The position numbers and the translations under genes were made by a program. DNA of 64,000 nucleotides from Owenia fusiformis (Eukaryota). Where the stretch lies: the NCBI GenBank assembly GCA_903813345.2, contig CAIIXF020000001.1:24118001-24182000 (forward strand), read 5' to 3'. The notes beneath the pieces were generated by a model. That model did no database searches. It saw only the letters and a program-made list of their open reading frames with translations, and was not told the DNA's origin. This document shows positions 16,163-49,619 of this stretch, piece by piece (positions within the stretch are counted from its first letter, which is position 1; every line of letters starts with the position of its first letter).

Positions 16163-18032
16163 AATTTGGGCTTTCTCGAGCTGAATTCTGTACTGCAATA
16201 GGGCTGTTTGAAGAGCTGTGTGTCTTGGAGGTATTCCTGTGTTTCTTGACCGATGCATCAGAGTGATGCGGAGAATTATCTGAGTAATCAGAACGTTCAT
16301 GAGGAGAACGTTCATCGTTAGAGTCAACTATGGTACTACTACTAATATTGATTTCATCTTCGTACAGCTCAAAGTTCATCAGGCTCTCATTGTCAGTGGC
16401 ATCGGACAATGCCGGACTGGCACACCGCATACCACGCGGTGAGTTAACCTGAGATCTGCTCCGACCTCTCAAAGAACGTCTATTTCCTGAGTTTTTCTGC
16501 AAGCTCTCCAAAGGGCTCCCACCCTCACCATATAAATATTTGTCCAGATCTGCTGTTGGGGGTCCAGGTATCTTACTACCTGTTTTAGGCCGACCCCGGA
16601 ATGACCTTCTGGCTGTGGTGCCTCTCTCACCAACATCACCAGTCTTATTGTCTACATTCTCATTTACATTACCATCATTACTACCAACAGTCTTATTTTT
16701 ATCCTGTATGGCTTTATTAGTATCTTCAACAACTATGGTGGGAGTTTTGGGTCGTCGATTTGGAAGTGATTTTCTGAGAGGTGTGTTTCTATTGAAGCTA
16801 GAGGTACTGCTTATACTAATACTACTGCCCCTACGTGCAGTGGAGGCTTGAGGTAAGTTGGGTGAAGAAAAGACATTGTCTTCTGTGACTGGACTCTTAG
16901 GGCTTGTAAGTTGCTCGCTACCGCTTTTTACACCACGGGGACCCGGGATATGACTACTGCTTTGGGGTCGATTTTTCATAGATTTCCTCAGTTCAGTTAA
17001 TCTTTCACCTAGTTCATCCACTGGGCTTACAGGTCCAGGGGATCTAGGACTCAATGGCTCAGATCTGGAACTTGACCACCCAGACCTGCTGCTCGAGTAG
17101 TCTGACCTGTCACTAGGGGGATTACTACTTTCATTACGTGGACTATGAGAAGTGGTACCATATAAAAAAGCACTCATATCACCATTAGCTGGAACCTTAG
17201 GGCTCTTGGGTCTACGCTTTACAGTCACTCTAGCATTGCTATTCCTGTTAAACACTTGGGCCCCTGAACCATCTGAGCTAATACTACTTGGGGTAGAGCT
17301 GCGTGTCGTAAAATTCTCCCCATACATATATGGTTCACCTGCACTCTCTGAACTTGTAGAGCTTTTAGAGCTATGAGAATGTCTTTTATGAGAAGATTTC
17401 CTACTATCTGATGAGCGATCGCTAGTTTGACTACTAGGAGAAAGCATTTGTGCGTCCCTCTCGGAACTTGTTGATGTACTAGTATCTATAGACAACCCAT
17501 CATCAAATAGTCCATACCTGTCAGATAATCCATCTACTCCTAAGCTTGGGGTACGCCTAGTTTTCTTTTTAACATGGAATGATCGCCTGGAAGTAGGGTT
17601 TCCAAATAAGAACCTATTCCAATCAGTTTCTTCAGCGGGAGAGCTCTCTAAAGGCACAAGGGGAGGCTCATATTCATTATAATCCTGTGTTTTATCATTA
17701 TAAGGGTCTTCTTCCCGACCAAATAAGTACCTCATATTTTTTTTCCACTCACTTGATTTAAAAAATTTATATCCATCAGAATACTGATCTCCAGGCGAAA
17801 CTGGACTTTTGTTGAGATTATTCCGAACTTCTGTGCTGTGTTTTGGTTCAGAATTGTTCTGTTCAGCAAGTTCAGCCACCATACTTCCTAGGCTTGTATT
17901 AAGACTGTTGTCATTTATCATATTATTGTTGGCTTCTAGAGTGTTAGAGTTAGTGTTTATATCATGGTTATAAGTTCCCTGGTCTGCTTTAACCTGTGCT
18001 CCTACAGCAATTGTAGGCTGTAGAGCCTCCAT
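16163..18032 (-). CDS. Putative alternative first coding exon of CLASP (623 aa, Ser/Arg/Pro-rich, disordered, SxIP motifs)
   Basis: 639-aa ORF inside the CLASP intron on the CLASP strand, with a good start context (aacaacATGG). A gtaagt donor follows 16163 (1870 nt, phase 1), compatible with the phase-1 acceptor at 4299. SHIP and SKIP motifs are present. Confidence 0.75.
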
Positions 18033-21000
18033 GTTGTTTTACCTGTACAGTTACAATCTGTGGGAATAATACACATTATATATCACGTTAACCATATCTT
18101 CAACTAAATAAATATATCCAGTTACTTATTACTCCATAATTGCTTATCGTATTGTGTTGTAAGTTCCAAATGTCGGTTGTTATAGTTAATAATTCACTTT
18201 TCCTGCCATGTGTCCTCAAAGCTGTATTCCCTCTTTGCCTCTACCACACATAATAATGATGAGTGATTTTGAATGGAGCGGAAGGTAGTCGTGTCACAGG
18301 TCACTAGTCTCCAGTAATGTAAAGGCTGCCTACCTTCCTGACTGATCACTGGCTAACTGTATTAATATCAGCTATACTTCTGATAACACGACTCACCTGG
18401 TCCCGGTGAGGCCTCTAATGGGTAATACATACAAGCACAGTCCAGCAATAAATTACAGCCAATCAAATCAGCTGTATGCTACTGCTTATTAACAACACAC
18501 AGAACAACTAATGTTCATCCAACTGCTGTAATTAAACTGACGTTTTTTATCCTCCAGAGCATAGTGCGTCTTTAAGTGAAGTTTTAACATGGAGGTTGTA
18601 TTTACAGTCTTAACAGTGTTGTAATAATTGTAAAACGGCTCCATATATCCTATTAGAAAGTTGGCCATTGTATTATTACATTAACTGGATCTGTAAGCTG
18701 GATTGAAGGGTTTCAACCTCAGGGCTCTGGGGTAACATTATAAAGGTTAAGCTCATGTTTATATTAGGACATAGCCAATGAAAGCAGCGGAAATGTTGAG
18801 CTTTTTTAAAACTATACAAATACAGCAACATTCTATTTGATCTTTCATTGATAAAGAAAAACCTCTACATTGACTTGGCTGTTTAATGAGCTCACATTTC
18901 CTAGTTTGGCCCAAGTTTAGAAACACTTGAAAAATTACATTGTTTCGGTTTCAACATATGTCTCTCTAGTTTCTTGATATTTGCAAATTATTCTATATTT
19001 GCAAAGTGAAGGGAGTATTGAAGGCCAATTTGAAAGAGAGAGAGTTTGACTTTGAATATTGTTAACAATGTAAATTCAACTGCATAATCAGGCTAGTTTT
19101 AGTCAACTACCTTTTCCCAAAATTTAATTTGTATGTACTTTTGTTATTTACTTGGTTGTACTTAGAAGTTTTCACCACAATGCACTTATGATAAGGAAAA
19201 CGTCTGCTCATTGAAGTGTATTATGGGTAATCAAGACTTCCCCACAACACGAAATCTTCTCTTAAATATCATTCAAACCACAAGAAAGTAGGTTAACCTT
19301 GACACACCTAGCTACGATATGAAACCAGTTAGAAATACTAAAGAAAATATTTTCTGAGAACAGATGAGAAAGTGATCTCAGAAAGGGACAATTCTTCATT
19401 AAGAAAAATTCCTTTGTGGCTACTTAGGTGATAAAACGAAAGCCTGTGTAAAATCACATTTAAAGGTAGATAATACAGTTAAGTTTTATGATTTACATAG
19501 TAAGAGTAAATGGTGTGTAGTGATGGGTTTATATTTTATCTATGTCTCCCAAATGTTTTCAATGGCAAACTTAAAAGTTGAAAGAGTTGAGACATTGTAC
19601 TGCTCTGATTTATCTGACATTTTAATTAAATTATACTGGGATGATAATAATGTAATTTAGGATATTTCACTCTTATTCATGTATTTCTAAATGAATGTAA
19701 AGTCAGTATATCTTGTGATATTTTATGGGAGGGATGTGATATGATGCCAGACAACAGGTAGCGCTTGGTACAGAGGAAGCCTATCGTAATGCCCCAAGGC
19801 ACACAAATAAAATCGAGTGCCAAAAATGTTGCAGCAAATGTTTTAAGTTTTGTTATTGCGACATAAAAGGGACATCAGTATTGAACATAGGGTTTGAATA
19901 CCACTTTTGAATCACTGCTCTTGATTTCATTCAACATGTCATAAAAATTGAAATATGAAATAAATGGAATTCAATCACATTCTTAGGGTTGAAGTTTACA
20001 TTTTGAATTGTAATTATGAAACTACTTTTATTAAGGTTATTGACAATATGTTAAATGATTTGAAGTATTTCAATGGCTTTTGAAAAATGTCATGTTGAAA
20101 ATAAACAGGGAAGAAAATAATTTTTCACACAAAATGAGCTTATTGAGAGAGAATTGAAAAGTAGTTAAAAATACAAGTTGGTCCTTTGTAATGTGCTAGA
20201 TCTTTTGCCTGCGTAAGTAATATGTGCTTCAATGGAGAAAGAATGCTTTTGTTATACCTCACGACTTTTACTATTTCTTCAAGTTCACCAGATAACACTC
20301 CAAGTTTAACATTTACCAGGTATTCTTCCTGTCTTGGACTTTATTTTATGGTTTCTAAATCTCCCTGGATAATTTTGATTTATTTTTCTGGGTATTACAT
20401 TTGATTAATTGTAGGATCCACAGTCAGTTCTATCACTTGGAATAGACATCTCTCACAAGCTTTAGATAAAGAGAGACTGGGGCAAATCAGAATAGATTCT
20501 ATTGTAGATGTACAGTACATGAAATCAAGATGACATTACCCAGATTCATCAAAACTCATCTTTATCTAAATAACTTGATGCATAAATACATCAATGATCT
20601 ACTTAACAAAACATAACCTGGATATGTGAATTGCAATTTAACTTTCGGTTCAAGTGTACACATGAAAATACACAGACAAGGAAACCTATTTAAAAATATA
20701 CTTGTTAATTCTAGGTATTCAGAAGTTCAAGTGATTTGGTCTTAACCTTGAAGCATGTAGTTAAATGAGATAAAAATACAAACATTCATACATCCGATGA
20801 CACTGTAATATGTTATAATATCTTTTTATAACTGAAAAAATAACATTTAACTCTAAAGAAATCTTTTAAATCTTTAAAATCTACCTAATAAATCACTGTT
20901 TACTGACTGAATATGTGTTCACCGAGTGGATATGTCATCAAAAATTGTGTGAAATGTTTTTTCAACAAGTTATTTGAACATACTTGGTGCCTGGAGTTGA

Positions 21001-32635: not shown

Positions 32636-35600
32636 TGTCGGACCTGGCCAAAATCTGGTAGTGTGGTTGTGGTCGGGTCACGAACAATTTATTTAATATG
32701 GGATTCTCACTGGTTTTATGTGGGCGCAGACCTGGTTTGGTGGTACTGCTTTCACTGAAAGGGGAGGTGGTTACACATTTATATACAAAATTCAAATATA
32801 TAGGTTTTTTATAATTTATTAACACTTTAATTTTGAAAACAAATAAAACACAAATGTCCATGTAATAAATATCTCTGAGTTGTCTTGTTGCTCTTCTCTT
32901 GTTTGCACTCTGCTCTACTTTTACTCTTCTTCACTCTGCTCAGGGGTTACTCTGCTTTACTCTTCTGTTCTCTGACGTCATTTACTCTGCTTTAGTTTCA
33001 CTCTGTTCTGCTCTGGTTACTCTTTATTCCGCTCTGCTCTACTTTACTCTATTCTGCTCTGGTTACTCTTTATTCCGCTCTGCTCTACTTTACTCTGGTC
33101 TGCTCTGGTTATTCTTTATTCCGCTCTGCTCTGCTTTCTCTCTATTCTGTTCTGGTTACTCTTTACTCCTCTCTGCTCTGATTTACTCTGTTCTGCTCAG
33201 GTTACTCTTTACTCCTTTCTGTTCTGTTCTGCTTACTCTTTACTCTGCACTGCTCTGCTTACTCTTTATTCTGTTCTGCTTACTCTTTACTCTGCACTGC
33301 TCTGCTTACTCTTTCCCCTGTTCTGCTCTGCTTACTCTTTATTCTACTCTGCTTACTCTTTACTCCTATCTTCTCTGCTCTGGTTACTCTCTACTCCTAT
33401 CTGCTCTGTTCTGCTTTAATCTGTTCTGCTCTGCTTTACTCTTTACTCTACCCTCGTCTCTGCTATTCACTCTGCTTTACTCTTTTCTGCTCCGCTTACT
33501 CTTTACTCTGCACTCCTCTGCTTTACTCTTTACTCTACCCTCGTCTCTGCTATTCACTCTGCTTTACTCTTTTCTGCTCTGGTTACTCTTTATTCCGCTC
33601 TGTTCTGCTTTAAATCTGTTCTGCTCTGCTTACTCTTTACTCTGCACTGCTCTGCTTACTCTTTCCCCTGTTCTGCTCTGCTTACTCTTTATTCTACTCT
33701 GCTTACTCTTTACTCCTATCTTCTCTGCTCTGGTTACTCTCTACTCCTATCTGCTCTGTTCTGCTTTAATCTGTTCTGCTCTGCTTACTCTTTACTCTGC
33801 ACTGCTCTGCTTTACTCTTTACTCTACCCTCGTCTCTGCTATTCACTCTGCTTTACTCTTTTCTGCTCTGCTTACTCTTTACTCTGCACTGCTCTGCTTT
33901 ACTCTTTACTCTACCCTCGTCTCTGCTATTCACTCTGCTTTACTCTTTTCTGCTCTGGTTACTCTTTATTCCGCTCTGTTCTGCTTTAAATCTGTTCTGC
34001 TCTGCTTACTCTTTACTCTGCACTGCTCTGCTTACTCTTTCCCCTGTTCTGCTCTGCTTACTCTTTATTCTACTCTGCTTACTCTTTACTCCTATCTTCT
34101 CTGCTCTGGTTACTCTCTACTCCTATCTGCTCTGTTCTGCTTTAATCTGTTCTGTTCTGCTTTACTCAGGGTTACTCTTCTTCAACCTGGGTTACTCGTC
34201 TTTACTCTTCGCCGCTCTGCTCTACTCAGGGTTACTCTTCTTCAGCCTGGGTTACTCTTCTTTACTCTTCGCCGCTCTGCTCTACTCAGGGTTACTCTTC
34301 TTCAGCCTGGGTTACTCGTCTTTACTCTTCGCCGCTCTGCTCTACTCAGGGTTACTCTTCTTCAGCCTGGGTTACTCTGCTTTACTCTTCGCCGTTCTGC
34401 TCTACTCAGGGTTACTCTTCTTCAGCCTGGGTTACTCTGCTTTACTCTTCGCCGCTCTGCTCTACTCAGGGTTACTCTTCTTCAGCCTGGGTTACTCTGC
34501 TTTACTCTTCGCCGCTCTGCTCTACTCAGGGTTACTCTTCTTCAGCCTGGGTTACTCTGCTTTACTCTTCGCCGCTCTGCTCTACTCAGGTTTACTCTTC
34601 TTCAGCCTGGGTTACTCGTCTTTACTCTTCGCCGCTCTGCTCTACTCAGGGTTACTCTTCTTCAGCCTGGGTTACTCGTCTTTACTCTTCGCCGCTCTGC
34701 TCTACTCAGGGTTACTCTTTACTCTGCACTGCTCTGCTTTCTCTCTATTCTGTTCTGCTTACTCTTTACTCTGCACTGCTCTGCTTACTCTTTATTCTGT
34801 TCTGCTTTACTCAGGGTTACTCTTCTTCAACCTGGGTTACTCTGCTTTACTCTTCGCCGTTCTGCTCTACTCAGGGTTACTCTTCTTCAGCCTGGGTTAC
34901 TCTGCTTTACTCTTCGCCGCTCTGCTCTACTCAGGGTTACTCTTCTTCAGCCTGGGTTACTCTGCTTTACTCTTCGCCGCTCTGCTCTACTCAGGGTTAC
35001 TCTTCTTCAGCCTGGGTTGTTCAAAACAAGACTAGTAGTTCGGGAATATCAATCAAATTATGAGATTAGACCCCAATTACCAGTCCAAAAGGAAATAACT
35101 CTACTGCTCAACAAAATACTTGCTCCGGATGGAATCAAGAATGTCGATCAAATCCTGAGATTAGATTTGATCCACACACTTCAATGAGGATAAAACTACC
35201 GCTCAAAAATAAGAAAATGCTTGCTTTAAGGAACGAGTAGTTCAAGAATGTCAATCAAATTCTGAGATTAGACTTGAACCACACGTGGACCGGAAGTCAT
35301 CCAAGATGGCGGAATTGCAAAGGATTGTGGGGAGTGTATGATGCAATCACCAAAATCTCAATGTCAAATCGGAAAAAAAACATCAAATTAACCTTTTGAT
35401 TGTATCACAAAAAGGAATTATAGGAATATATCAGCACTTACAAAATCTGGAACATGTTCTTTAGGCGTCTCTAACTGCTAATTCACTCACAGTTCTCCTT
35501 GTTCGCCCACATCACACCATGCCAAATGGTCCTATATCCACGTGTCATGGTATTTTCCGTCACGAAACGATAAATATACTCCAACTAACGCTAATCCACA

Positions 35601-36621
35601 CTTGGTTAATCTCCAGACTTCCTCAGATTTATCAGCATCCACAAACACAATAAACATCCAATAATAGAATCAAATTTTCCATTATATTCCCGATTTAGCT
35701 TTAAAAATGATGCTACACATCCTCACACTTTAACATTTAAAGCAAGACTAACATCAGGTGATCAGATTATCTCCTATCTTAACCCACTAATGAGATGCAT
35801 AAGGAAGCTATCTGATTGGCTACAGCTGGACTAAGCTGGTGTGTTTACTCCATTTGGTGATGCATTGTGGGAAATCACTATGACAATGTCAATCACAGAT
35901 CCTTTAATTGCCGATGACTCATAACCATGTGGCATATTTCTCCTATGGGTTGACCAATTCTAGGACAAGGGTTCCCGCACAAGCAAAGAGTAAGGTTACT
36001 CTTACTCTTACTCCCAGCTTACTCCTTGAGTTTATGGTTACTCCTAAGTTACTCTTTGAGATTTGCACTTACTCTTAGTTTACTCTTTTTATTAGTTTAG
36101 GTTTTTGGGGTTAAACTACCGAAGACCAGGCATAGCACGTAAGCATAATAAGGATGGCACTGTTAGAAGAAAGAGTAAGTTACCCAATCCCCGGAAATAT
36201 GAATTTAAACTATTACAGAAGTAAGGAACGTTATCCCTAATTGTTCCCAGATAATATAAAACATAAATGTATATCAGAAAAATACCCTACTAGGGGGGTC
36301 ATGAAGTTATAACCACAAAGTAATTTGACCTAGATATTCGAAAAAGAAAGTAAACACAACTCGAACGAAAAAAATTCTACTCTGCACGATCATTACATCT
36401 AAATTCAGGCAAGTTTCTCTTAGATTATCACATAATATTACTCTTGATACTTATATGAATGAAGGGAATATAAAAATAAATGGAAACCTACCAGGAGATC
36501 GCAGGAAAGGAGCCTTTTTTTTAAATTTTGAAATGACAATTCTCGTGTATTTGAAATTTAAGAACTAGCGCCCTCTAGCGTAGATTAAATTTTGAAAGGT
36601 GGGAAATTCAAATTTCCCACA
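32636..36621 (-). repeat. 3' LTR (3986 bp)
   Basis: Preceded by the PPT on the minus strand. Only 4 substitutions seen by eye against the 5' LTR. Confidence 0.97.
32890..35017. repeat. ~2.1-kb tandem/low-complexity array in the 3' LTR (nested CTCTG/TTACTC units, then 60-bp repeats from ~34160)
   Basis: The 60-bp unit tttactcttcgccgctctgctctactcagggttactcttcttcagcctgggttactctgc is visible line by line at 34201-34718 and 34807-35017. Confidence 0.95.
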
Positions 36622-36639
36622 CACCCCCCATCTTTACTC
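36622..36639 (-). promoter_or_regulatory. Polypurine tract
   Basis: Minus strand GAGTAAAGATGGGGGGTG lies immediately before the TG start of the 3' LTR. Confidence 0.85.
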
Positions 36640-37111
36640 AATGCGCCCTCGCATTGCTCCTATAATCTTAACCATGAGCAACAACCATTGGAGTAAAAAA
36701 ACAACTTATGAGTAACTTTTAATCAATCATATAACATGCTACATGATAATTTTTATAACATAGTCTCAAACTCAATTACCAAGTCACCATCAATGCACTT
36801 CAACTAAAATAAACTTCAGTAAACACCATCACATTCTAGAGATGCTTCTAAAAAGTCTAACTATCTCAAAAGTCTCTGATCAATGCCATAAACAATCATT
36901 TCTGTGCATGTCTTTCTGTCTCTCTTTGACATATGAATCACTTTTATAAGATAACAAGTTTACGAATAATGAACATACAACTTAAAGTCAATAAAAAGTA
37001 GAGAAATTTCACTTTAAAGTCTCTATCTCTCTCTCTACATGATATGAACGAGCTATATTAAGTAACAAGTTAAAAGTTAACATAACATCTTAAAATCTGT
37101 GAGAGACCAAC

Positions 37112-40100
37112 TTAGAAATATACTTGATCTACATGTACGTATACGTTAGGTGCGAAGGAAGGTCCATGAGTCTGGGTTCCGATTGTCCTCACTTCTGGTG
37201 ACCTAGCCGTAGCAGACGGTACGCTTGCTTGTGACTTGGTGCTGGTTTCCTTCCCTTTAGGTTCCGACTTGTTTTCCTCTGGAATGTCAAGAGTAATAGG
37301 AGGACTCTCACCCTCGACCTCCCGTTCCTGTCTACCATCTTGATCAGTGTCACTAGAATAATGATCCTCTGCCAATCCATCTTTATGTTCCCGTGTACTG
37401 GCTTTACCATCCCCTGACTCTCCATCTGCCTCCGAGGTAGGTGTTTCATGGTCTTGTTCAACTGGTGAATCATCAACTTCCTCCTCTAAATTCGGGGTAA
37501 GAGGAAAGAATGGCACCTTTGGCTCTTCTCCTAGACTAGTAGTATCTATCCCATGAAGGTGTCGCATGTGTCGCTGGAGGTTAAACTTCCTTGTGAACAC
37601 TTGGGCACATAACGAACACACATGGGAAGTGTCTGTCTCTGGACCAACTTTGGCGGATTCTGCTGTCGGGCAGGAGATGCTGCTAATAAGATTTACAGCG
37701 CTAGTCATTCTTTCCTGGAAGTTGTGAGAGGAGTCTAATCCATCCCGATGATCAGTTCCTGAGGTAGATTTGGTGGAGAATCCTGTTGATCCACTGGTTC
37801 CAGTCTTATGATGACTACTGGAGAGTGTCTGATCAGATCTTTTGACATGGGAATCTGGGGACTTGTGGGTGTCCAGCCTTTTCTTCTTAGAATCCCCCTT
37901 TGAACTTGCCACTGCTTTGATTTCACTTTTAACATAGTTTTTCGTGGCCGCTATCATCTTCCCAAATGGATGTACACCCAACTTTCTCTCCTGTCTTTTG
38001 GGACTACGGTCCCGGTTGGGAGGCTTCTCTCTCTCCTGTCTTTTGGGACTACGGTCCCGGCTGGGAGGCTTCTCTATCACAACGCGCCTCCTTGTAGGCT
38101 CATCTTTTCTAGATACATGTTCACTCTTCTTCTCTTCAGCATGCTTGTGATGAGCTTTTCTGTCTCTGGACTGCTCTCTTCGTCTTCTAGATCGGGATCT
38201 TGACCGTGCCATCTCATCAACTGCAAACAGAACGAAATCATTATATCTACTGGGTTGTTTCTTTTGTCTTTTAGGAAGAACACCCCCCTTTGATTCATTT
38301 TGCAATGGCTCAATTTTAGGACAACGTTCCCTTTTCCCTCCCGCTTTTTCTGTTTTAACCAATTTTCTGACTGGGACCTTTTTTAAACAGGGGGGAGCCT
38401 GGTCTTGGAGTTTATCCCGGAAACCATCTTTCAATTCTTCTCCGTGTTTTATAGGTTTTTCCTCATTCAGCCATGTAGGATCACTGCATTTCTCTTCAGG
38501 TTCCTCTTTCAAATGATCGTTGGGTCCTTCTGGGGCTTCCATTGGTGGTGGACTCTCCAACTCTTCCTGATTTGGTAATTCATCTTTTGCATCAAAGTTA
38601 GTGTCCTTATCTGGTTTGTGTTCTTCCCCACACCTTTTATCATCTTCTGGCATGGTTAAGTCTCTCAAGGGATCAGAAGAGAGAACAGGTTTGTCCCTAA
38701 CAATCTCGTCTACTCTCGGCCATTTCTTAGGGAGTGCACAGTGGAATGGTTTGAGTAGGTTGAAGTGGACAATACGTGGTTTACCTGTGCCCTTCTCACG
38801 TATCCTATAGGTCACTGGTGATAATTGGCTGACAACTTGGAAAGGCCCCACCCATCTCGGTTGTAGTTTTGGAGATCTTCCTTTCCTCCTTGTTTTGTTC
38901 ATCAGCCAAACTGCACTTCCCACCGGATAGAGCTCCTCATCCACTTTCCTATTGTAGTCCAATCTTTGCCTCGAAACAGCCAGCTCCAACACATCACGGG
39001 CTTTCTCATGGACCTCCTCCAAGCATCGGCGCAACACCAGAGCATGGTCTGTTGCTAGTTCGCTTGTCTCTGGAACTGCTATCATCCTTTCGAGCGAGGC
39101 TTTCATTTCTCGACCCATCATCATCATGCTAGGTGTCTCCCCTGTCGCCTTGTGCACAGATGATCTGTAGGCCATTAAAGCTAAGGGTACCTTGAGGTCC
39201 CAATCATCTTGACAGTAAGTTGGAGCAAGTAACTTAGTGATGTTATCTACAAGGGTATGATTGAACCGTTCCACTAAGCCATTCGACTGGGGGTGGAATG
39301 GTGTCGTCCTGGTCTTGTCTATTCCCATCAGTTGACACACCTCCTGGAATACTTCAGATTCGAAGTTGCGCCCTTGATCACTGTGAAGTTCCTTTGGAAC
39401 CCCCCATCTGCTACATATTTCACCCACCAACTTGTTGGCTACCGTCACAGCAGTTTGATCAGGAAGGGGAAACACCTCCGGCCATTTTGAAAAGTAATCA
39501 GAGCATACAAGCAAAAGCTTGTTACCTCTTGGGGTCTCTGGAAATGGCCCTAAAACGTCAATTCCCCATCTTTCCATCGGTGCTCCCACTCTGAGTTGTT
39601 GCAGAGGAGCCTTTTTTCTCCGAGGTGGATTCTTTCTAGATTCACATATCTCACAGGTCCTACAATATGATCTAACATCAGCAGAGAGGTTAGGCCAATA
39701 GAACGCCCTTCTGCATCTTTCTAGAGTCCTCTTCACCCCATGATGTCCTGCTGTTGGAGAAGAATGACCCAGGTCCAATACCCTTGGTTTTAAAACTCCA
39801 GGAGTAACCACTTGGAGTCGAGTGATGGAGCCATCCTCCTCCTCCCAGACTCTACATAGTACCCCGGATTGCAGTTGCAGTCGGGACCACTGTATCCACA
39901 GCTTTTTAACTGTAGGTGACTTGGAACTGATGTCCTCCCAACTCGGCTTCTCCTTGTTCTCTTCCAGAGAGTTGATGATCTGAGTAAGGTCCCGGTCTTC
40001 TCTTTGGGCTACTCCTATATCCTCCAAAGTCCATTCTTGCTCCAGAGAAACAGTCAAAATATCATCTTCTGATTGCTCTTCAATCTGTTCTTCTACGCAT

Positions 40101-43100
40101 CGTCCCTCGCAATGGTCGCACTGCTTGCATGGCACCCGGGACATGAGGTCTGCATTCTGGTGCTTTGGTCCTGGTCGGTACTCCGTCTCAAATTGGAACT
40201 CTTGCAAGCTCTGTATCCATCTGGCTAACTGACCTTCTGGCTCTTTGAAGTTTACCAACCATCTCAAAGAGCTATGGTCAGTTCGCAGCAAAAACATCAC
40301 TCCATACAGAAACTGCTTGAAATAACGAGTATAATTGACGACAGCTAACAGTTCACGTCTTGTCACACAATAATTTCGTTCATGTCGATTCAATCTCTTG
40401 CTGGCATAGAATAACACCTTCTCCTCACCTTCTTGGATCTGCGAGAGTACTGCTCCTATAGCCTCAAGACTGGCGTCTGTATCCAATATGTATTTGCATC
40501 CCTCCTTTGGATAACCCATCACTGGAGCGCTCATGAGTTTCTCCTTTAATGTTTTAAACGCCTCCTCGCAGTGTTCATTCCAATGGAAAATGACATTCTT
40601 CTTTGTCAGTTCATGAAGTGGGCCTGCAATCATTGCGAAGTCCTTAATATGTCGTCTGTAATAGGAAACTCCGCCTATAAATTGACGCACTTGTTTGACA
40701 CTTTTTGGGGCTGGATACTCTGCTATCTGCTTAACCTTTTCTGGATTCGGAGTAACTCCCTCACGCGAGACCACGTGTCCCAGAAACTCAACTTCTTTGC
40801 GGAAAAGAGTACACTTAGATGGCTTCAGTCGAAGTCCAGCCTCCCTCAACCTTTCAAAAATTTCCTGCAGTCTCTCTACAGCCATCTCGAAGCTACTCCC
40901 AAAGGAGATGACGTCGTCCAAATATACGAGTGAGGTCTTAAGAGTCAGTCCCCGTAAGACTCTCTCCATGAGCCTACAGAAGGTAGATGGGGCTCCAGTC
41001 AAGCCAAATGGCATCACCACCCACTGGTATTGTCCACCTCTGACAGAAAAGGCTGTCTTCTCCCGATCTTTAGGATCTACCGGTACTTGCCAATAGCCGC
41101 TACATAAATCTAAGGTGGAGTAGAATTCGCTGTTTCCCATCAGGTCCAATGTCTCAGCAATGTTAGGAATTGGGAATGCATCCTTCTCGGTCACCTGATT
41201 TAAGCGCCGGTAGTCAACACAAAATCTCCACTTTCCGCCTTTCTTCTGAACCAACACAATAGGCGCTGACCAAGGACTCTGACTGTTTTCTATTATTCCT
41301 CGCTGCAACAAGTCTTTAACCTGTTTGTCCACCTCTAACTGTCGACCAGGAGGTAGACGCCGATATGACTGCTTAATCGGTTTGGCATCCCCCGTTGGAA
41401 TTCTGTGTTCAGTCCACTCAGTCCGGCCAAGATCAGCATCAGATGACGCAAAAATATCAGCGTTTTGTAATAATAGTCTTCTTACTGCAGTACCTTGTTG
41501 ATTACTCAGACCCTGAGTACTTCGCAAGAGTAAATCCTCTAAATACTCTGGAAAGGTCTCTTGCGGAGAGTACTCCTCATGTGAACACTGCTCTTCCCCG
41601 ATCTGCTCTTTACATCTCCCCGAGTAATCCTGTTCATCCTGACGAACTTTAAAGTCGGCCACTGGGGAAGTCTTGCTCGTATCGCCCTCTGTCATAGTTG
41701 GACTCAAATCTTGATTTTCTTCTCTCACCCATGAAATGTTGTGTAGATTTTCCTCTTCCTGGGATATGCAATACACCTTTCCAGTACATGGAGTAGCTAC
41801 TCCCACTATACTCCCTTTTGTTAACTCCAGAGGAAGAGCAGATAAATTCCAAATCTCTGCAAAGCTGCTTCCATCGTTAATGGTAGTTAAGGTTGTAGCT
41901 AGTTCAAAAGCCTGGCTGGATCGCTTAAAATTAAAGTTGTTATCAATCAGGACTTCGTCGGTGCTCCCTGAGCAGTCAACCTCAATATCCACCAGTTTTC
42001 CACAGTAAGGCGAAATCACAACATCCTCTGCTATATGGCAGAGCCACTCCTGAGACAGCTCCTCCTTCTTGTGAGATGCACTGGAATACTGCTCAGATGA
42101 CTCGCCTCTCTCACAGGGCTCTGCACTTCCACTCCTTGGTGAGTCTCCTCTTTGTAGGTGAATATCTTTATTACTCTTTGGCGCTTTGGTCCCTTCGCCT
42201 AGTAGTTGTTCAGCTGGAGTAGTCTTTTCTTCCTCTATTGGCGGTAACCCCAGTGCCCAGGAAACTTTACTCTTTAAAAGGCCATCCATCTTTTGTAGTT
42301 CTTTTGCTCTTCTCTGTGAATTGGGCATCGTTGTATCAAACTTTGCAAGTTTACTCCCTGACGGACCGGAGACACCATGCTGTTGTAGTCTCTCTCTTTT
42401 CCGCAATCTCTTGTGTGTTGTGACTTTGCTCCCTTGGACTGGGTCTCCATCTGGTGACTTACAATCAGGAGTTAACTCTGATGTCGGACTAGACCTTGAC
42501 TCTTTACTCCCTGAAGCCTTGCTCCTAACTGAGCTATTCCTAAAGGTATTACACTGTTCCCTACTTCTCGGAATTTGGTCTACTGGAGTAAACTTCTCCT
42601 TCACATACTCTTCAGACTGGGAGCTCTTGTAGATTCTTGACTCTTGGTACAGAGTATTTTTACTCTCAAGCTCAGCTCCCTGAGTAACTCCTACTCCCCG
42701 CTCTGGATCTTGATTACTCCTACTCAGTTCACTCTCTAGGTGATTGTCTTTGAACCTAAATGCCTTGTTCTTGCTCAAACACAGCTCATCAACTGGGATG
42801 CCTTCTCCTTGCCCGGAGGAATTGGTCAGCTTTTCATAACATTGATCCTCTTCAATTTGCTCCTTCTCTAGCGCTGAAGTATTCCCCTCATCTTCCTGGC
42901 TACTCTCCTCAATTCCTGACTCTTTGTAAAATTCCTCCCCCGGATCTGTGTCGTCTTCATCCACATTTCGATCAAATGTTGTCTTCCTGGTCCCCTTTTC
43001 TCCAACTTCCTCTCTAGTTGGTCTAAGTGAGGTAGAGTTAGCAGTACATTGTATTGATTCCTCATCTGTTTTTCCAACTTCGTTGTCTTCCTCAGGGTTC

Positions 43101-45577
43101 TGGAAGTGCATCTTTAGGTCAGCATAGTCAATGATTGCTCTACTGGCAGATAAATACTCAGAGCCGAGAATCCCATCTTGAGCAATATCAGCCACCACAA
43201 TGTTCATTGGAGTATTCTTGCCATCCAACTCAATGTCACATGTTAACATGCCATAAATAGCTAGATGCGACCCATCTGCCTGGGTAAAGAGTCGAGTAGA
43301 TGGCCTCAGAGAAGGACGACGTCTCCTTGGGATTCGGTTATAGCAATCTCGCCCTAACATTGTGCTCACAGCTCCTGAGTCGACAAGGAATTCCATTTTG
43401 GTTCCACAGATGTACACTTCAGCCATAATTTTCCGAACCAGCTCCTCACTGTTCTCCCCAGTCACCTCCTCGTCCCTATCCGCCATGAACCTCACAGGAC
43501 TCATTGAATTTGTGTTGTCTGTTCTTGGTGAGTTTTTCTCTCTTCTTGGTTTCTCTGGCAATGGACAGTCGTATGATAAGTGACCTGGTTTGTTACAATT
43601 GTAGCAAGTCAACGTGGGACACCGCCTCACTATATGTCCCTCCTCTCCACATTTTTTACATGTGGGTAACCGTTTTGATGAAGACCCGCTGTTTGTGATT
43701 TCAGCTACCCTTTTACTTATTTCTTCCATCTTTTTCTGCATCTGCTGGAGTTTAACGCTGACATCGTTACCCTCTTCCACTTGTAGGACTTTATGATCTC
43801 TTTTTGGTTTAAGACCCCTCCGTATCCTCTCCGATTCCTGGTAACTTTCCTCTTTTAAAGCTACTTCGATAGCTTTATCAAGAGAATCTGGGTCTTTCCT
43901 ATGAATTGCCTGTCTTAAGTCATCGTCTGGTATTGCTTGTTCGAAACTTCTTCTGGCCAGCCGGTCTTGAGCATTCCTACTCATCTCTGGGTAAGCCAGT
44001 GAAGTCAAACGTCGGATACTCTGACCTAAACTCTGAAGGGATTCTTTTGGCCTCCGGGTGCGACTGCACAGTTCAGCCTCATAGACATCCGCCTTCCCTC
44101 CCGGGCCAAACCTCTTTTCTAATGCCAGGAGTAAATCTTCATAGGAGTATCCTTCATCCAGCTCCAGGACCAACTGTTGGGCATCTCCTCTGAGGTTTGT
44201 TGCCAGGTATTGTCTCTTTTCTTGTGGAGACCAACCATTGTTCTCCACACAAGTAGCGAAGTAGGCCCTGTAATCCTTCCAAGGAGTACTGCCATCAAAT
44301 GTCTGTGTGGGCTTGATTCTTGTTCGGGTAGTAGGACTCTTGTTGGACTCTATCAATTTTGAACACATGTCCACCATCTTGGCCATGAGCATCGAGTTTG
44401 ACTCCTCTTGTACAAGCCTACTTGGCTGGGAATTTTCCTGCACTCCTGTAGGTCGTCTTCCTTCAGATTCACCCTCATCAAGGCCAGGTGCATAACCTGT
44501 CAGACCGTCTTTTTTCTTTCCATCAAGGCGTCCAAGATAGGACTCTGCAGAGTGCGGTTGGGAAGGGCCTTTACTCCTTTGCAAGTTACTGTTGCCAAGC
44601 TCGCTTGCTCCATAAAAGTCTGTACTCTTGGATAGCTGCCCTTGGGGAGTTGGTTCTGAACTCCTGTGTCTTTCTTCCCGGAGTAGGGGAGTAGGCTGTA
44701 ATAGCCTTTCCTGTAGTTCTGGGGCACTTTGACCATCTTTCCCGGATAATGGCCATCTATTACCCCCCATCTTTGCATCTGGTGCCCATGCCCGTCCAAG
44801 ATGTGATGCTAACTCTTTCCCACTGTATCCATCTTGTCTCTGTAGTGATGGTTTCTTTGTATAGATCCCAGAGCACACTTCTCCATAGGCCTGTGAACTG
44901 ACTCTACTCTTTTGCTCTGGCTCCAAGTTTGCAGTCCCCATATTTCTGCTACTCATCATTTGCTCCTTCTCCAAGTTTTCGGGAGTCACGCGACTGTCAT
45001 CTTGAGCAGCAGGGAGGCGCTGTACTATCTCAGACAGGAAACCCTTGAATTCTTGTTGAGCCTCTTGATGAGTTGTATTCAGCTTCTCTATCTGTTTTTG
45101 TATCTCCCCTTTACTCAAATGTACTTCTCTTCGAAGGTCTTCCTGCCCCGAGTACACTTCTCTTCTCAGGTCTTCATACATAGTTTTGTTCTGCAGCGCT
45201 TGTGCCTTCATCTGGCTGCTGAACACAGAGATCTGGAGTTGCTGACTCTGTAACTCCTGATCCATGGGCATGGTGACCCCAGGAGATCTTCCCTCCAGCA
45301 CAGTCGAAGTTAAAGGAAAGCCTCTCGATGGCGTCATCCCATACCCTACTCCTGGTACCATATAACCCGTCTTGGACCTTGCTCCTTCGGGATTTTCTTC
45401 CACTTCTCTTGTAGAATCTACTCCACACATCCCTGGCACTGTATCATCTAGCTCCATGTTCACTTGGGTGTAGTCCCCCTTGAAGAACACAGTGTTGTCC
45501 GCAGACTCATCTTCCTGTTGTCCTCCTTCCATCCTGGAGACTATACCATCAGGGCCTTCTTCTTGTCTAGAAGCCAT
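37112..45577 (-). CDS. Single-frame Gag-Pol polyprotein, 2821 aa: Gag with 2 CCHC knuckles, aspartic protease, RT, RNase H, integrase, and a C-terminal RS/C2H2 extension
   Basis: Knuckles CKKCGEEGHIVRRC and CYNCNKPGHLSYDC (~43565-43660); protease FLVDSGA (~43375); RT LVYLDD (~40913-40924); RNase H LDTDAS; integrase H..H..C..C, DVLGPF/SDQG/ERFN core and WVGPF (GPY/F) motif; C2H2 CSLC..H..H (~37553-37618). No internal stops or frameshifts. Confidence 0.97.
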   Translation of the reverse strand: MASRQEEGPDGIVSRMEGGQQEDESADNTVFFKGDYTQVNMELDDTVPGMCGVDSTREVEENPEGARSKTGYMVPGVGYGMTPSRGFPLTSTVLEGRSPGVTMPMDQELQSQQLQISVFSSQMKAQALQNKTMYEDLRREVYSGQEDLRREVHLSKGEIQKQIEKLNTTHQEAQQEFKGFLSEIVQRLPAAQDDSRVTPENLEKEQMMSSRNMGTANLEPEQKSRVSSQAYGEVCSGIYTKKPSLQRQDGYSGKELASHLGRAWAPDAKMGGNRWPLSGKDGQSAPELQERLLQPTPLLREERHRSSEPTPQGQLSKSTDFYGASELGNSNLQRSKGPSQPHSAESYLGRLDGKKKDGLTGYAPGLDEGESEGRRPTGVQENSQPSRLVQEESNSMLMAKMVDMCSKLIESNKSPTTRTRIKPTQTFDGSTPWKDYRAYFATCVENNGWSPQEKRQYLATNLRGDAQQLVLELDEGYSYEDLLLALEKRFGPGGKADVYEAELCSRTRRPKESLQSLGQSIRRLTSLAYPEMSRNAQDRLARRSFEQAIPDDDLRQAIHRKDPDSLDKAIEVALKEESYQESERIRRGLKPKRDHKVLQVEEGNDVSVKLQQMQKKMEEISKRVAEITNSGSSSKRLPTCKKCGEEGHIVRRCPTLTCYNCNKPGHLSYDCPLPEKPRREKNSPRTDNTNSMSPVRFMADRDEEVTGENSEELVRKIMAEVYICGTKMEFLVDSGAVSTMLGRDCYNRIPRRRRPSLRPSTRLFTQADGSHLAIYGMLTCDIELDGKNTPMNIVVADIAQDGILGSEYLSASRAIIDYADLKMHFQNPEEDNEVGKTDEESIQCTANSTSLRPTREEVGEKGTRKTTFDRNVDEDDTDPGEEFYKESGIEESSQEDEGNTSALEKEQIEEDQCYEKLTNSSGQGEGIPVDELCLSKNKAFRFKDNHLESELSRSNQDPERGVGVTQGAELESKNTLYQESRIYKSSQSEEYVKEKFTPVDQIPRSREQCNTFRNSSVRSKASGSKESRSSPTSELTPDCKSPDGDPVQGSKVTTHKRLRKRERLQQHGVSGPSGSKLAKFDTTMPNSQRRAKELQKMDGLLKSKVSWALGLPPIEEEKTTPAEQLLGEGTKAPKSNKDIHLQRGDSPRSGSAEPCERGESSEQYSSASHKKEELSQEWLCHIAEDVVISPYCGKLVDIEVDCSGSTDEVLIDNNFNFKRSSQAFELATTLTTINDGSSFAEIWNLSALPLELTKGSIVGVATPCTGKVYCISQEEENLHNISWVREENQDLSPTMTEGDTSKTSPVADFKVRQDEQDYSGRCKEQIGEEQCSHEEYSPQETFPEYLEDLLLRSTQGLSNQQGTAVRRLLLQNADIFASSDADLGRTEWTEHRIPTGDAKPIKQSYRRLPPGRQLEVDKQVKDLLQRGIIENSQSPWSAPIVLVQKKGGKWRFCVDYRRLNQVTEKDAFPIPNIAETLDLMGNSEFYSTLDLCSGYWQVPVDPKDREKTAFSVRGGQYQWVVMPFGLTGAPSTFCRLMERVLRGLTLKTSLVYLDDVISFGSSFEMAVERLQEIFERLREAGLRLKPSKCTLFRKEVEFLGHVVSREGVTPNPEKVKQIAEYPAPKSVKQVRQFIGGVSYYRRHIKDFAMIAGPLHELTKKNVIFHWNEHCEEAFKTLKEKLMSAPVMGYPKEGCKYILDTDASLEAIGAVLSQIQEGEEKVLFYASKRLNRHERNYCVTRRELLAVVNYTRYFKQFLYGVMFLLRTDHSSLRWLVNFKEPEGQLARWIQSLQEFQFETEYRPGPKHQNADLMSRVPCKQCDHCEGRCVEEQIEEQSEDDILTVSLEQEWTLEDIGVAQREDRDLTQIINSLEENKEKPSWEDISSKSPTVKKLWIQWSRLQLQSGVLCRVWEEEDGSITRLQVVTPGVLKPRVLDLGHSSPTAGHHGVKRTLERCRRAFYWPNLSADVRSYCRTCEICESRKNPPRRKKAPLQQLRVGAPMERWGIDVLGPFPETPRGNKLLLVCSDYFSKWPEVFPLPDQTAVTVANKLVGEICSRWGVPKELHSDQGRNFESEVFQEVCQLMGIDKTRTTPFHPQSNGLVERFNHTLVDNITKLLAPTYCQDDWDLKVPLALMAYRSSVHKATGETPSMMMMGREMKASLERMIAVPETSELATDHALVLRRCLEEVHEKARDVLELAVSRQRLDYNRKVDEELYPVGSAVWLMNKTRRKGRSPKLQPRWVGPFQVVSQLSPVTYRIREKGTGKPRIVHFNLLKPFHCALPKKWPRVDEIVRDKPVLSSDPLRDLTMPEDDKRCGEEHKPDKDTNFDAKDELPNQEELESPPPMEAPEGPNDHLKEEPEEKCSDPTWLNEEKPIKHGEELKDGFRDKLQDQAPPCLKKVPVRKLVKTEKAGGKRERCPKIEPLQNESKGGVLPKRQKKQPSRYNDFVLFAVDEMARSRSRSRRRREQSRDRKAHHKHAEEKKSEHVSRKDEPTRRRVVIEKPPSRDRSPKRQEREKPPNRDRSPKRQERKLGVHPFGKMIAATKNYVKSEIKAVASSKGDSKKKRLDTHKSPDSHVKRSDQTLSSSHHKTGTSGSTGFSTKSTSGTDHRDGLDSSHNFQERMTSAVNLISSISCPTAESAKVGPETDTSHVCSLCAQVFTRKFNLQRHMRHLHGIDTTSLGEEPKVPFFPLTPNLEEEVDDSPVEQDHETPTSEADGESGDGKASTREHKDGLAEDHYSSDTDQDGRQEREVEGESPPITLDIPEENKSEPKGKETSTKSQASVPSATARSPEVRTIGTQTHGPSFAPNVYVHVDQVYF

Positions 45578-45614
45578 TTTCTTCTCTTAAGTCTTCGTTC
45601 CCCGTCAGCAAATA

Positions 45615-45632
45615 ATCCCACCGCTGCCACCA
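45615..45632 (-). promoter_or_regulatory. Primer-binding site, tRNA-Leu (AAG/TAG type)
   Basis: Minus strand TGGTGGCAGCGGTGGGAT begins 1 nt after the LTR end. It is complementary to the tRNA-Leu 3' end ...ATCCCACCGCTGCCA-CCA. Confidence 0.9.
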
Positions 45633-45633
45633 A

Positions 45634-48600
45634 TGTCGGACCTGGCCAAAATCTGGTAGTGTGGTTGTGGTCGGGTCACGAACAATTTATTTAATATGGG
45701 ATTCTCACTGGTTTTATGTGGGCGCAGACCTGGTTTGGTGGTACTGCTTTCACTGAAAGGGGAGGTGGTTACACATTTATATACAAAATTCAAATATATA
45801 GGTTTTTTATAATTTATTAACACTTTAATTTTGAAAACAAATAAAACACAAATGTCCATGTAATAAATATCTCTGAGTTGTCTTGTTGCTCTTCTCTTGT
45901 TTGCACTCTGCTCTACTTTTACTCTTCTTCACTCTGCTCAGGGGTTACTCTGCTTTACTCTTCTGTTCTCTGACGTCATTTACTCTGCTTTAGTTTCACT
46001 CTGTTCTGCTCTGGTTACTCTTTATTCCGCTCTGCTCTACTTTACTCTATTCTGCTCTGGTTACTCTTTATTCCGCTCTGCTCTACTTTACTCTGGTCTG
46101 CTCTGGTTATTCTTTATTCCGCTCTGCTCTGCTTTCTCTCTATTCTGTTCTGGTTACTCTTTACTCCTCTCTGCTCTGATTTACTCTGTTCTGCTCAGGT
46201 TACTCTTTACTCCTTTCTGTTCTGTTCTGCTTACTCTTTACTCTGCACTGCTCTGCTTACTCTTTATTCTGTTCTGCTTACTCTTTACTCTGCACTGCTC
46301 TGCTTACTCTTTCCCCTGTTCTGCTCTGCTTACTCTTTATTCTACTCTGCTTACTCTTTACTCCTATCTTCTCTGCTCTGGTTACTCTCTACTCCTATCT
46401 GCTCTGTTCTGCTTTAATCTGTTCTGCTCTGCTTTACTCTTTACTCTACCCTCGTCTCTGCTATTCACTCTGCTTTACTCTTTTCTGCTCCGCTTACTCT
46501 TTACTCTGCACTCCTCTGCTTTACTCTTTACTCTACCCTCGTCTCTGCTATTCACTCTGCTTTACTCTTTTCTGCTCTGGTTACTCTTTATTCCGCTCTG
46601 TTCTGCTTTAAATCTGTTCTGCTCTGCTTACTCTTTACTCTGCACTGCTCTGCTTACTCTTTCCCCTGTTCTGCTCTGCTTACTCTTTATTCTACTCTGC
46701 TTACTCTTTACTCCTATCTTCTCTGCTCTGGTTACTCTCTACTCCTATCTGCTCTGTTCTGCTTTAATCTGTTCTGCTCTGCTTACTCTTTACTCTGCAC
46801 TGCTCTGCTTTACTCTTTACTCTACCCTCGTCTCTGCTATTCACTCTGCTTTACTCTTTTCTGCTCTGCTTACTCTTTACTCTGCACTGCTCTGCTTTAC
46901 TCTTTACTCTACCCTCGTCTCTGCTATTCACTCTGCTTTACTCTTTTCTGCTCTGGTTACTCTTTATTCCGCTCTGTTCTGCTTTAAATCTGTTCTGCTC
47001 TGCTTACTCTTTACTCTGCACTGCTCTGCTTACTCTTTCCCCTGTTCTGCTCTGCTTACTCTTTATTCTACTCTGCTTACTCTTTACTCCTATCTTCTCT
47101 GCTCTGGTTACTCTCTACTCCTATCTGCTCTGTTCTGCTTTAATCTGTTCTGTTCTGCTTTACTCAGGGTTACTCTTCTTCAACCTGGGTTACTCGTCTT
47201 TACTCTTCGCCGCTCTGCTCTACTCAGGGTTACTCTTCTTCAGCCTGGGTTACTCTTCTTTACTCTTCGCCGCTCTGCTCTACTCAGGGTTACTCTTCTT
47301 CAGCCTGGGTTACTCGTCTTTACTCTTCGCCGCTCTGCTCTACTCAGGGTTACTCTTCTTCAGCCTGGGTTACTCTGCTTTACTCTTCGCCGTTCTGCTC
47401 TACTCAGGGTTACTCTTCTTCAGCCTGGGTTACTCTGCTTTACTCTTCGCCGCTCTGCTCTACTCAGGGTTACTCTTCTTCAGCCTGGGTTACTCTGCTT
47501 TACTCTTCGCCGCTCTGCTCTACTCAGGGTTACTCTTCTTCAGCCTGGGTTACTCTGCTTTACTCTTCGCCGCTCTGCTCTACTCAGGTTTACTCTTCTT
47601 CAGCCTGGGTTACTCGTCTTTACTCTTCGCCGCTCTGCTCTACTCAGGGTTACTCTTCTTCAGCCTGGGTTACTCGTCTTTACTCTTCGCCGCTCTGCTC
47701 TACTCAGGGTTACTCTTTACTCTGCACTGCTCTGCTTTCTCTCTATTCTGTTCTGCTTACTCTTTACTCTGCACTGCTCTGCTTACTCTTTATTCTGTTC
47801 TGCTTTACTCAGGGTTACTCTTCTTCAACCTGGGTTACTCTGCTTTACTCTTCGCCGTTCTGCTCTACTCAGGGTTACTCTTCTTCAGCCTGGGTTACTC
47901 TGCTTTACTCTTCGCCGCTCTGCTCTACTCAGGGTTACTCTTCTTCAGCCTGGGTTACTCTGCTTTACTCTTCGCCGCTCTGCTCTACTCAGGGTTACTC
48001 TTCTTCAGCCTGGGTTGTTCAAAACAAGACTAGTAATTCGGGAATATCAATCAAATTATGAGATTAGACCCCAATTACCAGTCCAAAAGGAAATAACTCT
48101 ACTGCTCAACAAAATACTTGCTCCGGATGGAATCAAGAATGTCAATCAAATCCTGAGATTAGATTTGATCCACACACTTCAATGAGGATAAAACTACCGC
48201 TCAAAAATAAGAAAATGCTTGCTTTAAGGAACGAGTAGTTCAAGAATGTCAATCAAATTCTGAGATTAGACTTGAACCACACATGGACCGGAAGTCATCC
48301 AAGATGGCGGAATTGCAAAGGATTGTGGGGAGTGTATGATGCAATCACCAAAATCTCAATGTCAAATCGGAAAAAAAACATCAAATTAACCTTTTGATTG
48401 TATCACAAAAAGGAATTATAGGAATATATCAGCACTTACAAAATCTGGAACATGTTCTTTAGGCGTCTCTAACTGCTAATTCACTCACAGTTCTCCTTGT
48501 TCGCCCACATCACACCATGCCAAATGGTCCTATATCCACGTGTCATGGTATTTTCCGTCACGAAACGATAAATATACTCCAACTAACGCTAATCCACACT

Positions 48601-49619
48601 TGGTTAATCTCCAGACTTCCTCAGATTTATCAGCATCCACAAACACAATAAACATCCAATAATAGAATCAAATTTTCCATTATATTCCCGATTTAGCTTT
48701 AAAAATGATGCTACACATCCTCACACTTTAACATTTAAAGCAAGACTAACATCAGGTGATCAGATTATCTCCTATCTTAACCCACTAATGAGATGCATAA
48801 GGAAGCTATCTGATTGGCTACAGCTGGACTAAGCTGGTGTGTTTACTCCATTTGGTGATGCATTGTGGGAAATCACTATGACAATGTCAATCACAGATCC
48901 TTTAATTGCCGATGACTCATAACCATGTGGCATATTTCTCCTATGGGTTGACCAATTCTAGGACAAGGGTTCCCGCACAAGCAAAGAGTAAGGTTACTCT
49001 TACTCTTACTCCCAGCTTACTCCTTGAGTTTATGGTTACTCCTAAGTTACTCTTTGAGATTTGCACTTACTCTTAGTTTACTCTTTTTATTAGTTTAGGT
49101 TTTTGGGGTTAAACTACCGAAGACCAGGCATAGCACGTAAGCATAATAAGGATGGCACTGTTAGAAGAAAGAGTAAGTTACCCAATCCCCGGAAATATGA
49201 ATTTAAACTATTACAGAAGTAAGGAACGTTATCCCTAATTGTTCCCAGATAATATAAAACATAAATGTATATCAGAAAAATACCCTACTAGGGGGGTCAT
49301 GAAGTTATAACCACAAAGTAATTTGACCTAGATATTCGAAAAAGAAAGTAAACACAACTCGAACGAAAAAAATTCTACTCTGCACGATCATTACATCTAA
49401 ATTCAGGCAAGTTTCTCTTAGATTATCACATAATATTACTCTTGATACTTATATGAATGAAGGGAATATAAAAATAAATGGAAACCTACCAGGAGATCGC
49501 AGGAAAGGAGCCTTTTTTTTAAATTTTGAAATGTCAATTCTCGTGTATTTGAAATTTAAGAACTAGCGCCCTCTAGCGTAGATTAAATTTTGAAAGGTGG
49601 GAAATTCAAATTTCCCACA
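45634..49619 (-). repeat. 5' LTR (3986 bp)
   Basis: Copy of 32636-36621 at offset 12998. Termini TGTGGGA...TCCGACA form an imperfect inverted repeat. Followed by the PBS on the minus strand. Confidence 0.97.
45888..48015. repeat. Same tandem array in the 5' LTR
   Basis: Copy of 32890-35017 at offset 12998. Confidence 0.95.

Follow-up and report, generated by a model that had tools for sequence, protein, structure and literature searches.

A finger-bearing coding module in frame behind the integrase of a young Ty3/Gypsy retrotransposon in Owenia fusiformis

What does it mean when the reading frame of a Ty3/Gypsy retrotransposon runs on for hundreds of codons past the point at which Pol normally ends? 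The question is raised by a complete long terminal repeat (LTR) retrotransposon of 16,984 bp on the minus strand (32636-49619) of a 64,000-nucleotide stretch of the Owenia fusiformis genome (assembly GCA_903813345.2, contig CAIIXF020000001.1, positions 24,118,001 to 24,182,000; hereafter, the window). Downstream of its integrase the frame stays open for a further 366 codons, referred to here as the tail, which encode a charged protein segment with one C2H2 zinc finger. An earlier note on this DNA had proposed that the tail is a spliced accessory gene hidden in the element, a targeting domain tethered to integrase, or both. The explanation favored here, with moderate confidence, is that the tail is an in-frame C-terminal extension of Pol/integrase, a lineage-specific captured module of approximately 370 codons.

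The tail belongs to a single stop-to-stop gag-pol frame (45586..37112) of 2824 aa, uninterrupted over all 2,824 codons. At the joint between pol and tail the minus strand reads cagtagatataatgatttcgttctgtttgcAG followed directly by ttgatgagATGg, with an AG at 38222-38221, the in-frame ATG that opens the tail at 38212, and an out-of-frame ATG at 38217-38215, 5 nt upstream of it; these positions are those given in the earlier note. In the polyprotein, residues 2448-2459 cross from integrase into the tail and read YNDFVLFAVDEMAR, and the nearest in-frame ATG upstream of the tail ATG is residue 2349. Counted from its own ATG, the tail product is 366 aa long and begins MARSRSRSRRRREQ. Over the length of the tail this frame contains no stop codon, whereas the remaining two contain 12 and 33, and the 490-nt stretch past the tail stop has a GC content of 0.318 and 14, 14 and 12 stops per frame. 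The GC content of the tail is 0.477, and its values at the three codon positions (0.54/0.48/0.42) resemble those of the reverse transcriptase-integrase (RT-IN) core (0.54/0.40/0.48); both overall composition and codon-position GC run on across the junction without a break. The analytic probability of 366 open codons at the composition of the tail is 2.6e-9, and none of 20,000 shuffles of its DNA stayed open. The tail is clearly genuine coding sequence, beyond what chance would produce, and the open frame that the earlier note described past integrase is borne out. Because no stop lies between integrase and tail, any ribosome that translates the genomic RNA to the end of Gag-Pol makes the tail as well, as can be read directly from the sequence.

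The position of the tail relative to the usual end of Pol was assessed by comparison with relatives. Residues 2200-2824 were searched exhaustively with phmmer against 1.84 billion representative proteins, which gave 2,370 matches at E <= 1e-3; once the entry of the window itself and two zinc-finger arrays had been removed, the best 150 of these left 147 relatives. The GPY/F anchor, W-x-G-P-[FYCL], was present in 125 of the 147. A terminal motif, defined as four or more clustered basic residues and then P-x(1,2)-[RKH]-[FYWL], was found downstream of the anchor in 41 of the 125; the other 84 anchored relatives, many of them short fragments, are outside the count of end distances. Of the 41 motif-bearing relatives, 35 had no more than 10 residues after the motif (median 3) and 38 had no more than 30, in agreement with the statement in the earlier note that QPSRYNDFVL resembles the usual C-terminus of related Gypsy Pol proteins. 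In the element studied here, 376 residues follow the motif. Its distance from anchor to motif (PKRQKKQPSRY) is 195 residues, within the range of 54-328 seen in the relatives, apart from one outlier at 676, a probable chance match to which one of the three long post-motif ends is also due. By this comparison the tail is an add-on past the ancestral end of Pol, starting at an ATG some twelve residues or less from the point where ancestral Pol stopped. The closest terminal motif, PKRYKDFILL, occurs in a 706-aa protein (P0063) labeled at source as an uncharacterised brittle-star protein. Like the element, P0063 continues beyond this motif, for 97 acidic residues that end in a second basic motif; unlike the tail, its extension has neither a finger nor an RS-like (arginine/serine) part and does not match the tail. 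This suggests that extensions past the usual Pol end may recur in this group of integrase relatives.

It is extremely improbable that pol was joined to unrelated sequence by an assembly chimera or a sequencing artefact, and no point in support of such an event was found. Run X1, an independent, DNA-like run from another sample, covers 36400-43935 evenly at a depth of 17-28, and one of its contigs (38046-39283) spans the pol-tail junction unbroken, with 8 substitutions and no gaps; no indel is listed within the tail. The continuity of composition and of codon-position GC over the junction likewise speaks against an artefact.

The element that carries the tail is in other respects an ordinary Ty3/Gypsy member. 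Its two LTRs, repeated at an offset of 12,998, differ by 4 mismatches in 3,986 bp (99.9% identical), and an ATAT target-site duplication lies on either side (49623-49620 and 32635-32632). A stretch resembling a primer binding site (PBS), which may match a Leu tRNA, follows the 5’ LTR, and a tract resembling a polypurine tract (PPT) precedes the 3’ LTR. Pfam matches in the polyprotein place zf-CCHC at approximately residue 660, protease at 723-813, RVT_1 at 1446-1605, RNase H at 1669-1797, Integrase_H2C2 at 1929-1986, rve at 2002-2099, and Integrase_p58_C, the GPY/F domain, at 2247-2280. LTRs, target duplication, PBS- and PPT-like sites and the domain order CCHC-protease-RT-RNase H-integrase with GPY/F are those of Ty3/Gypsy elements (Metaviridae). 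The element is a genuine member of this group, intact and very young, having been inserted lately. The GC content of its ORF is about 46%, compared to a host background of about 32%.

The tail opens with a basic, RS-like region, carries a single C2H2 finger, and closes with an acidic region; together with a duplicated unit, these are the parts that had been noted earlier in the 366-aa product. Eleven of the 13 RS/SR dipeptides of the tail fall within residues 1-80. A 15-codon tandem duplication, EKPPSRDRSPKRQER and EKPPNRDRSPKRQER, occupies 37985-38075 (45 nt x 2.0, 97% matches) and preserves the frame. Basic runs of the form RRRR, RRR and KKKR are present. The finger, CSLCAQVFTRKFNLQRHMRHLH, is an exact classical C-x2-C-x3-F-x5-L-x2-H-x4-H at tail residues 199-220. 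When the residues of the tail were shuffled 200,000 times, this pattern came up 27 times in its loose form and twice in its strict form. Solved classical fingers (those of the DNA binders ADR1, ZFAT and CTCF, and others) align to it weakly (E 0.026-1). In the last 144 residues there are 33 D+E versus 12 K+R. The maximum 19-residue Kyte-Doolittle mean anywhere in the tail is 0.67; because it has no hydrophobic segment, the tail lacks a transmembrane anchor and is not an env. Pfam gave no match to a Chromo family at E up to 10, none to PF09237 (GAGA-type), and none to an RNA recognition motif (RRM), so that the tail lacks the combination of RRM and long RS domain by which SR proteins are defined.

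Relatives of the tail itself were sought in several collections. Word-indexed searches found none among proteins of 642-2000 aa and none among those of 1553-4942 aa, while at 201-641 aa they returned only the tail itself and one generic zinc-finger protein (E 4e-3). In the exhaustive search, among the best 150 of 2,370 matches, 147 matched best in the integrase C-terminus and reached at most query position 184; the tail was matched only by itself and the two zinc-finger arrays. A local phmmer comparison of the tail to 171 stored proteins matched only three zinc-finger proteins, and scans of metagenome and viral contigs gave no tail match. The only non-self protein to score strongly against the tail (P0004; JGI/IMG, 3,179 aa, on a 29-kb contig) is an unusual tandem array of 38 near-identical units of 83 residues, in which a single C2H2 finger is followed each time by acidic sequence; one unit matches at just about E 0.003. 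An ESM Atlas feature search returned generic C2H2 clusters only (top 0.92, with 162 shared features versus 170 typical of a true family); GAGA is named in just 12% of the members of the nearest cluster, which is a lead only. No second copy of the tail occurs elsewhere in the window, and neither an internal duplication that could be its source nor likeness to a 641-aa ORF of the window was found (best E 0.87). The composition and length of the tail make it unlikely that it arose de novo from the AT-rich 3’ region.

These results bear on the possibility that the tail is a functionless passenger, a coding piece lately acquired, perhaps when reverse transcriptase switched templates, and open just because the copy is young. 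The isolation of the tail in the searches, its mostly disordered character and the near identity of the LTRs all fit a passenger. So does variation in the second sample, for which 37 of 46 differences in the X1 contigs were scored by class. In the tail, 2 synonymous and 2 non-synonymous differences were listed, giving no sign of constraint; the RT-IN core had 8 and 3, respectively, and the domain-free spacer between protease and RT had 5 and 9, which suggests that the element tolerates long, low-complexity inserts. However, no donor gene was found, though the public proteins of this genome were in the searched collection. The module starts exactly at the ancestral stop and has its own stop before the AT-rich untranslated region, and the presence of the tail in contigs from another sample, together with its in-frame 45-nt duplication, indicates that it has been propagated. 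A functionless passenger is, on this evidence, an unlikely explanation.

A different question is whether the tail is made as a separate protein, with or without the Pol fusion. In that case a donor site in the leader or in early gag would be spliced to the acceptor at 38221 to form a subgenomic mRNA, and translation from the ATG at 38212 would yield a nuclear regulator of the element's RNA with an RS region and a finger, similar to Rev or to CERV of the Cer1 element. At the exact start of the module, a T-rich tract and a CAG do stand 9 nt ahead of an ATG whose context is gagATGg. Of the 329 YAG sites (949 AG in all) in the 9.2-kb transcript region, 14 have a pyrimidine count no lower than that of this tract, or approximately 1 per 650 nt, and on its own the acceptor-like site does not exceed chance. 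The tract is rich in T because it encodes D-F-V-L-F-A-V, the hydrophobic end of the conserved NDFVLFAV. The out-of-frame ATG 5 nt upstream also counts against separate expression, and continuity with the pol frame speaks against an ORF expressed by splicing only, since such an ORF would not need it.

Three raw RNA-seq runs bearing the same species label (11-12.7 million records each) were mapped to 36400-45800. No joints and no loose end at 38221 were seen, on just 22, 21 and 19 reads over 9.4 kb, which is too thin to decide either way. In run X9, a few reads pass 38221 from the tail into pol (bins 38284-39225). The approximately 21 reads of run X10 are confined to the tail and to the end of the LTR, with none at 38284-45505; the depth of both runs is too low to interpret, and the X10 pattern is anecdotal. 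A public protein entry from a 62.2-Mb contig (NCBI, UniRef, nr) is identical to the 366-aa tail letter for letter, so that a gene model starts at the tail ATG, and no public entry of 642-4942 aa contains the tail. The gene model alone is evidence of neither expression nor a junction, and it may merely stem from masking of the recognisable Gypsy part. An RS-like region with a single finger also resembles RNA-processing proteins. A report on Cer1 offers a precedent in the spliced CERV mRNA, which ends in an ORF at the env position (PMC10309623). Taken together, separate expression by splicing is unlikely. Of the two proposals in the earlier note, the integrase-tethered module agrees with the sequence, because integrase and tail share one frame with no stop between them, whereas the spliced hidden gene found no support, its tract being one of 14 such sites and explained by conserved codons.

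The favored explanation is thus a fusion of the tail to integrase. The module would have been an ORF that already had an ATG when it was captured, from a cellular coding sequence, from another mobile element, or from a former ORF3, and it would have been fused to Pol by loss of the pol stop. The ATG in good context 12 residues past the motif at which relatives stop suggests arrival as a ready-made ORF. By analogy with chromodomains, the most likely role would be that of an adaptor attached to integrase, with the basic runs serving in nuclear entry or nucleic-acid binding and the finger in contact with DNA or chromatin.

Several points weigh against the extension as a working part of integrase. 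The fusion protein is a prediction from the sequence, and the protease might cut the tail off. The acceptor-like site and good ATG at the exact start of the module, with a public gene model there, keep separate expression open. The Pfam match of the finger to zf-C2H2 (PF00096; E 3.2e-4, 21.4 bits) falls under the 25.2-bit cut-off, and its flanks are neutral or acidic, with no adjoining basic region. Single-sequence AlphaFold2 (AF2) modeling of the whole tail gave a mean predicted local distance difference test (pLDDT) of 49.6 and a predicted template modeling score (pTM) of 0.22, with no beta-beta-alpha fold modeled at the finger, and the ESM Atlas model of the identical sequence has a pLDDT of 0.44; by prediction, nearly all of the tail is intrinsically disordered sequence surrounding a small finger. 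With two variants of each class, the second sample is uninformative, the numbers being too few to show constraint. In the searches described above, the tail appears as an orphan at one locus, with no relative detected beyond generic zinc fingers.

The coordinates of the features are collected in Table 1.

Table 1. Features of the element and of its tail, in positions of the window
Feature	Position	Strand	Remarks
5’ LTR	45634..49619	-	3,986 bp, TG...CA, large internal tandem arrays
PBS-like TGG... stretch	45614..45632	-	one base past the 5’ LTR
gag-pol ORF, single	37112..45577	-	first ATG (45577) to stop
Integrase C-terminal GPY/F domain (Integrase_p58_C, residues 2247-2280)	38747..38848	-	Pfam
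Ancestral Pol C-terminal motif PKRQKKQPSRYNDFVL (residues 2438-2453)	38228..38275	-	by comparison with relatives
Acceptor-like tract tttcgttctgtttgcag	38221..38238	-	putative; pyrimidines at 12 of 17 positions (10 T), then CAG
In-frame ATG opening the 366-aa tail	38210..38212	-	gagATGg context
Added module, 366 codons (P0002)	37115..38212	-	stop at 37114-37112
Basic RS-like region (tail residues 1-80)	37973..38212	-	pI 11.7, 31 K+R, 11 RS/SR dipeptides
Single C2H2 zinc finger (tail residues 197-220)	37553..37624	-	Pfam, pattern
Acidic region, predicted disordered (tail residues 223-366, last 144)	37115..37546	-	pI 4.3
AT-rich 3’ untranslated region	36622..37111	-	GC 0.32, stops in all frames
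PPT-like purine tract AAAGATGGGGGGTG	36622..36635	-	directly ahead of the 3’ LTR
3’ LTR	32636..36621	-	3,986 bp, TG...CA

Other observations concern the element and its surroundings. The LTRs are unusually long and consist mostly of nested tandem arrays with 60-nt and roughly 87-, 289- and 350-nt spacings (33000-35200 and 46000-48200), which yield spurious plus-strand open frames of up to 772 aa. In RNA-seq runs X10 and X11, some reads (5 and 6, respectively) agree with the end of the LTR up to 45634, beyond which their sequences vary. Further loose ends are found at 45664, 45718 and 45747, and X1 depth rises to 91-212 towards the 5’ end (45634-45800). These patterns indicate that other loci carry copies of the LTR or related elements, and that these are transcribed or read through. 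One X1 contig ends at 45360 in 19 letters that resemble a tagmentation adapter, which indicates that the X1 contigs carry some library artefacts. Within the polyprotein, two stretches have no Pfam match: the 571-aa spacer between protease and RT (41387-43099, minus strand) and the N-terminal 427 aa ahead of the capsid-like part (44297-45577, minus strand). Outside the element, a 641-codon open frame on the minus strand (16113-18038; GC 0.42 within the 32% GC background) is Ser-rich and of low complexity, has neither a Pfam match nor similarity to the tail, and probably represents a large host-gene exon.

Addition of domains or ORFs to LTR retrotransposons is already known, and an in-frame, finger-bearing tail past Pol is a variation on it. 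Fixed gain of new domains by these elements is considered rare, according to one report (PMC9289625). Searches of the open-access literature found no account of a C2H2 finger located behind the integrase of a Gypsy element. It is a tentative possibility, no stronger, that an active Gypsy element of animals has here gained a functional, lineage-specific innovation, either an integrase-finger fusion for nuclear entry and target choice or a spliced nuclear regulator similar to CERV or Rev, expressed from the acceptor at 38221. Chromodomains explain heterochromatin targeting, and CERV the export of unspliced RNA. A young, intact element whose integrase bears a DNA-binding-type finger and a basic, import-like segment would offer a natural case in which to test how such elements gain specificity of targeting or nuclear entry. 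If true, the fusion would be a natural counterpart of engineered integrase-finger fusions. Its value at present is that of a clean, well-defined candidate for such a natural fusion, from a single locus.

Comparison with known systems places the tail among several kinds of addition to retroelements. The env of errantiviruses (ORF3 of the Drosophila gypsy type) sits after pol, and its mRNA is spliced. The tail shares this position past pol; unlike env, a membrane glycoprotein with a hydrophobic anchor or signal, it is highly charged and has no hydrophobic segment. Single-finger binders similar to the GAGA factor have basic regions directly flanking the finger, in contrast to the neutral or acidic flanks in the tail. 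Captured ORFs are described in several reports: ORF3s in bdelloid rotifer LTR retrotransposons (PMC5408684), an AlkB ORF in an orchid Gypsy element, with mention of giant planarian elements (PMC9289625), and additional ORFs (aORFs) in plant LTR retrotransposons (PMC7264820). Like these, the tail is lineage-specific extra coding sequence downstream of pol in an otherwise ordinary element, but they are separate and often have enzymatic or env-like domains, whereas the tail is fused and has one recognisable finger.

In the case of CERV from Cer1, a Ty3/Gypsy element of C. elegans, a report describes a spliced mRNA of 5 exons, the first exons in the gag frame and the last part formed by the ORF at the env position; the protein is nuclear, contains a Cys-containing motif, is required for export of the genomic (unspliced) RNA, and is given there as having no homologues outside nematodes (PMC10309623). 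Both CERV and the tail are orphan, lineage-restricted sequences in the env position of a Gypsy-type element. They were compared by description, not by sequence, and differ in that CERV is spliced while the ORF of the tail is continuous with pol. The element is neither a chromovirus nor an env-bearing element of the errantivirus type. Unlike chromoviruses, it has no chromodomain, and its module lies past the full ancestral C-terminus, with about 370 aa that are mostly disordered around a single C2H2 finger. Like chromoviruses, however, it has an extra module in frame behind a GPY/F integrase, which by analogy could tether the integration complex to chromatin.

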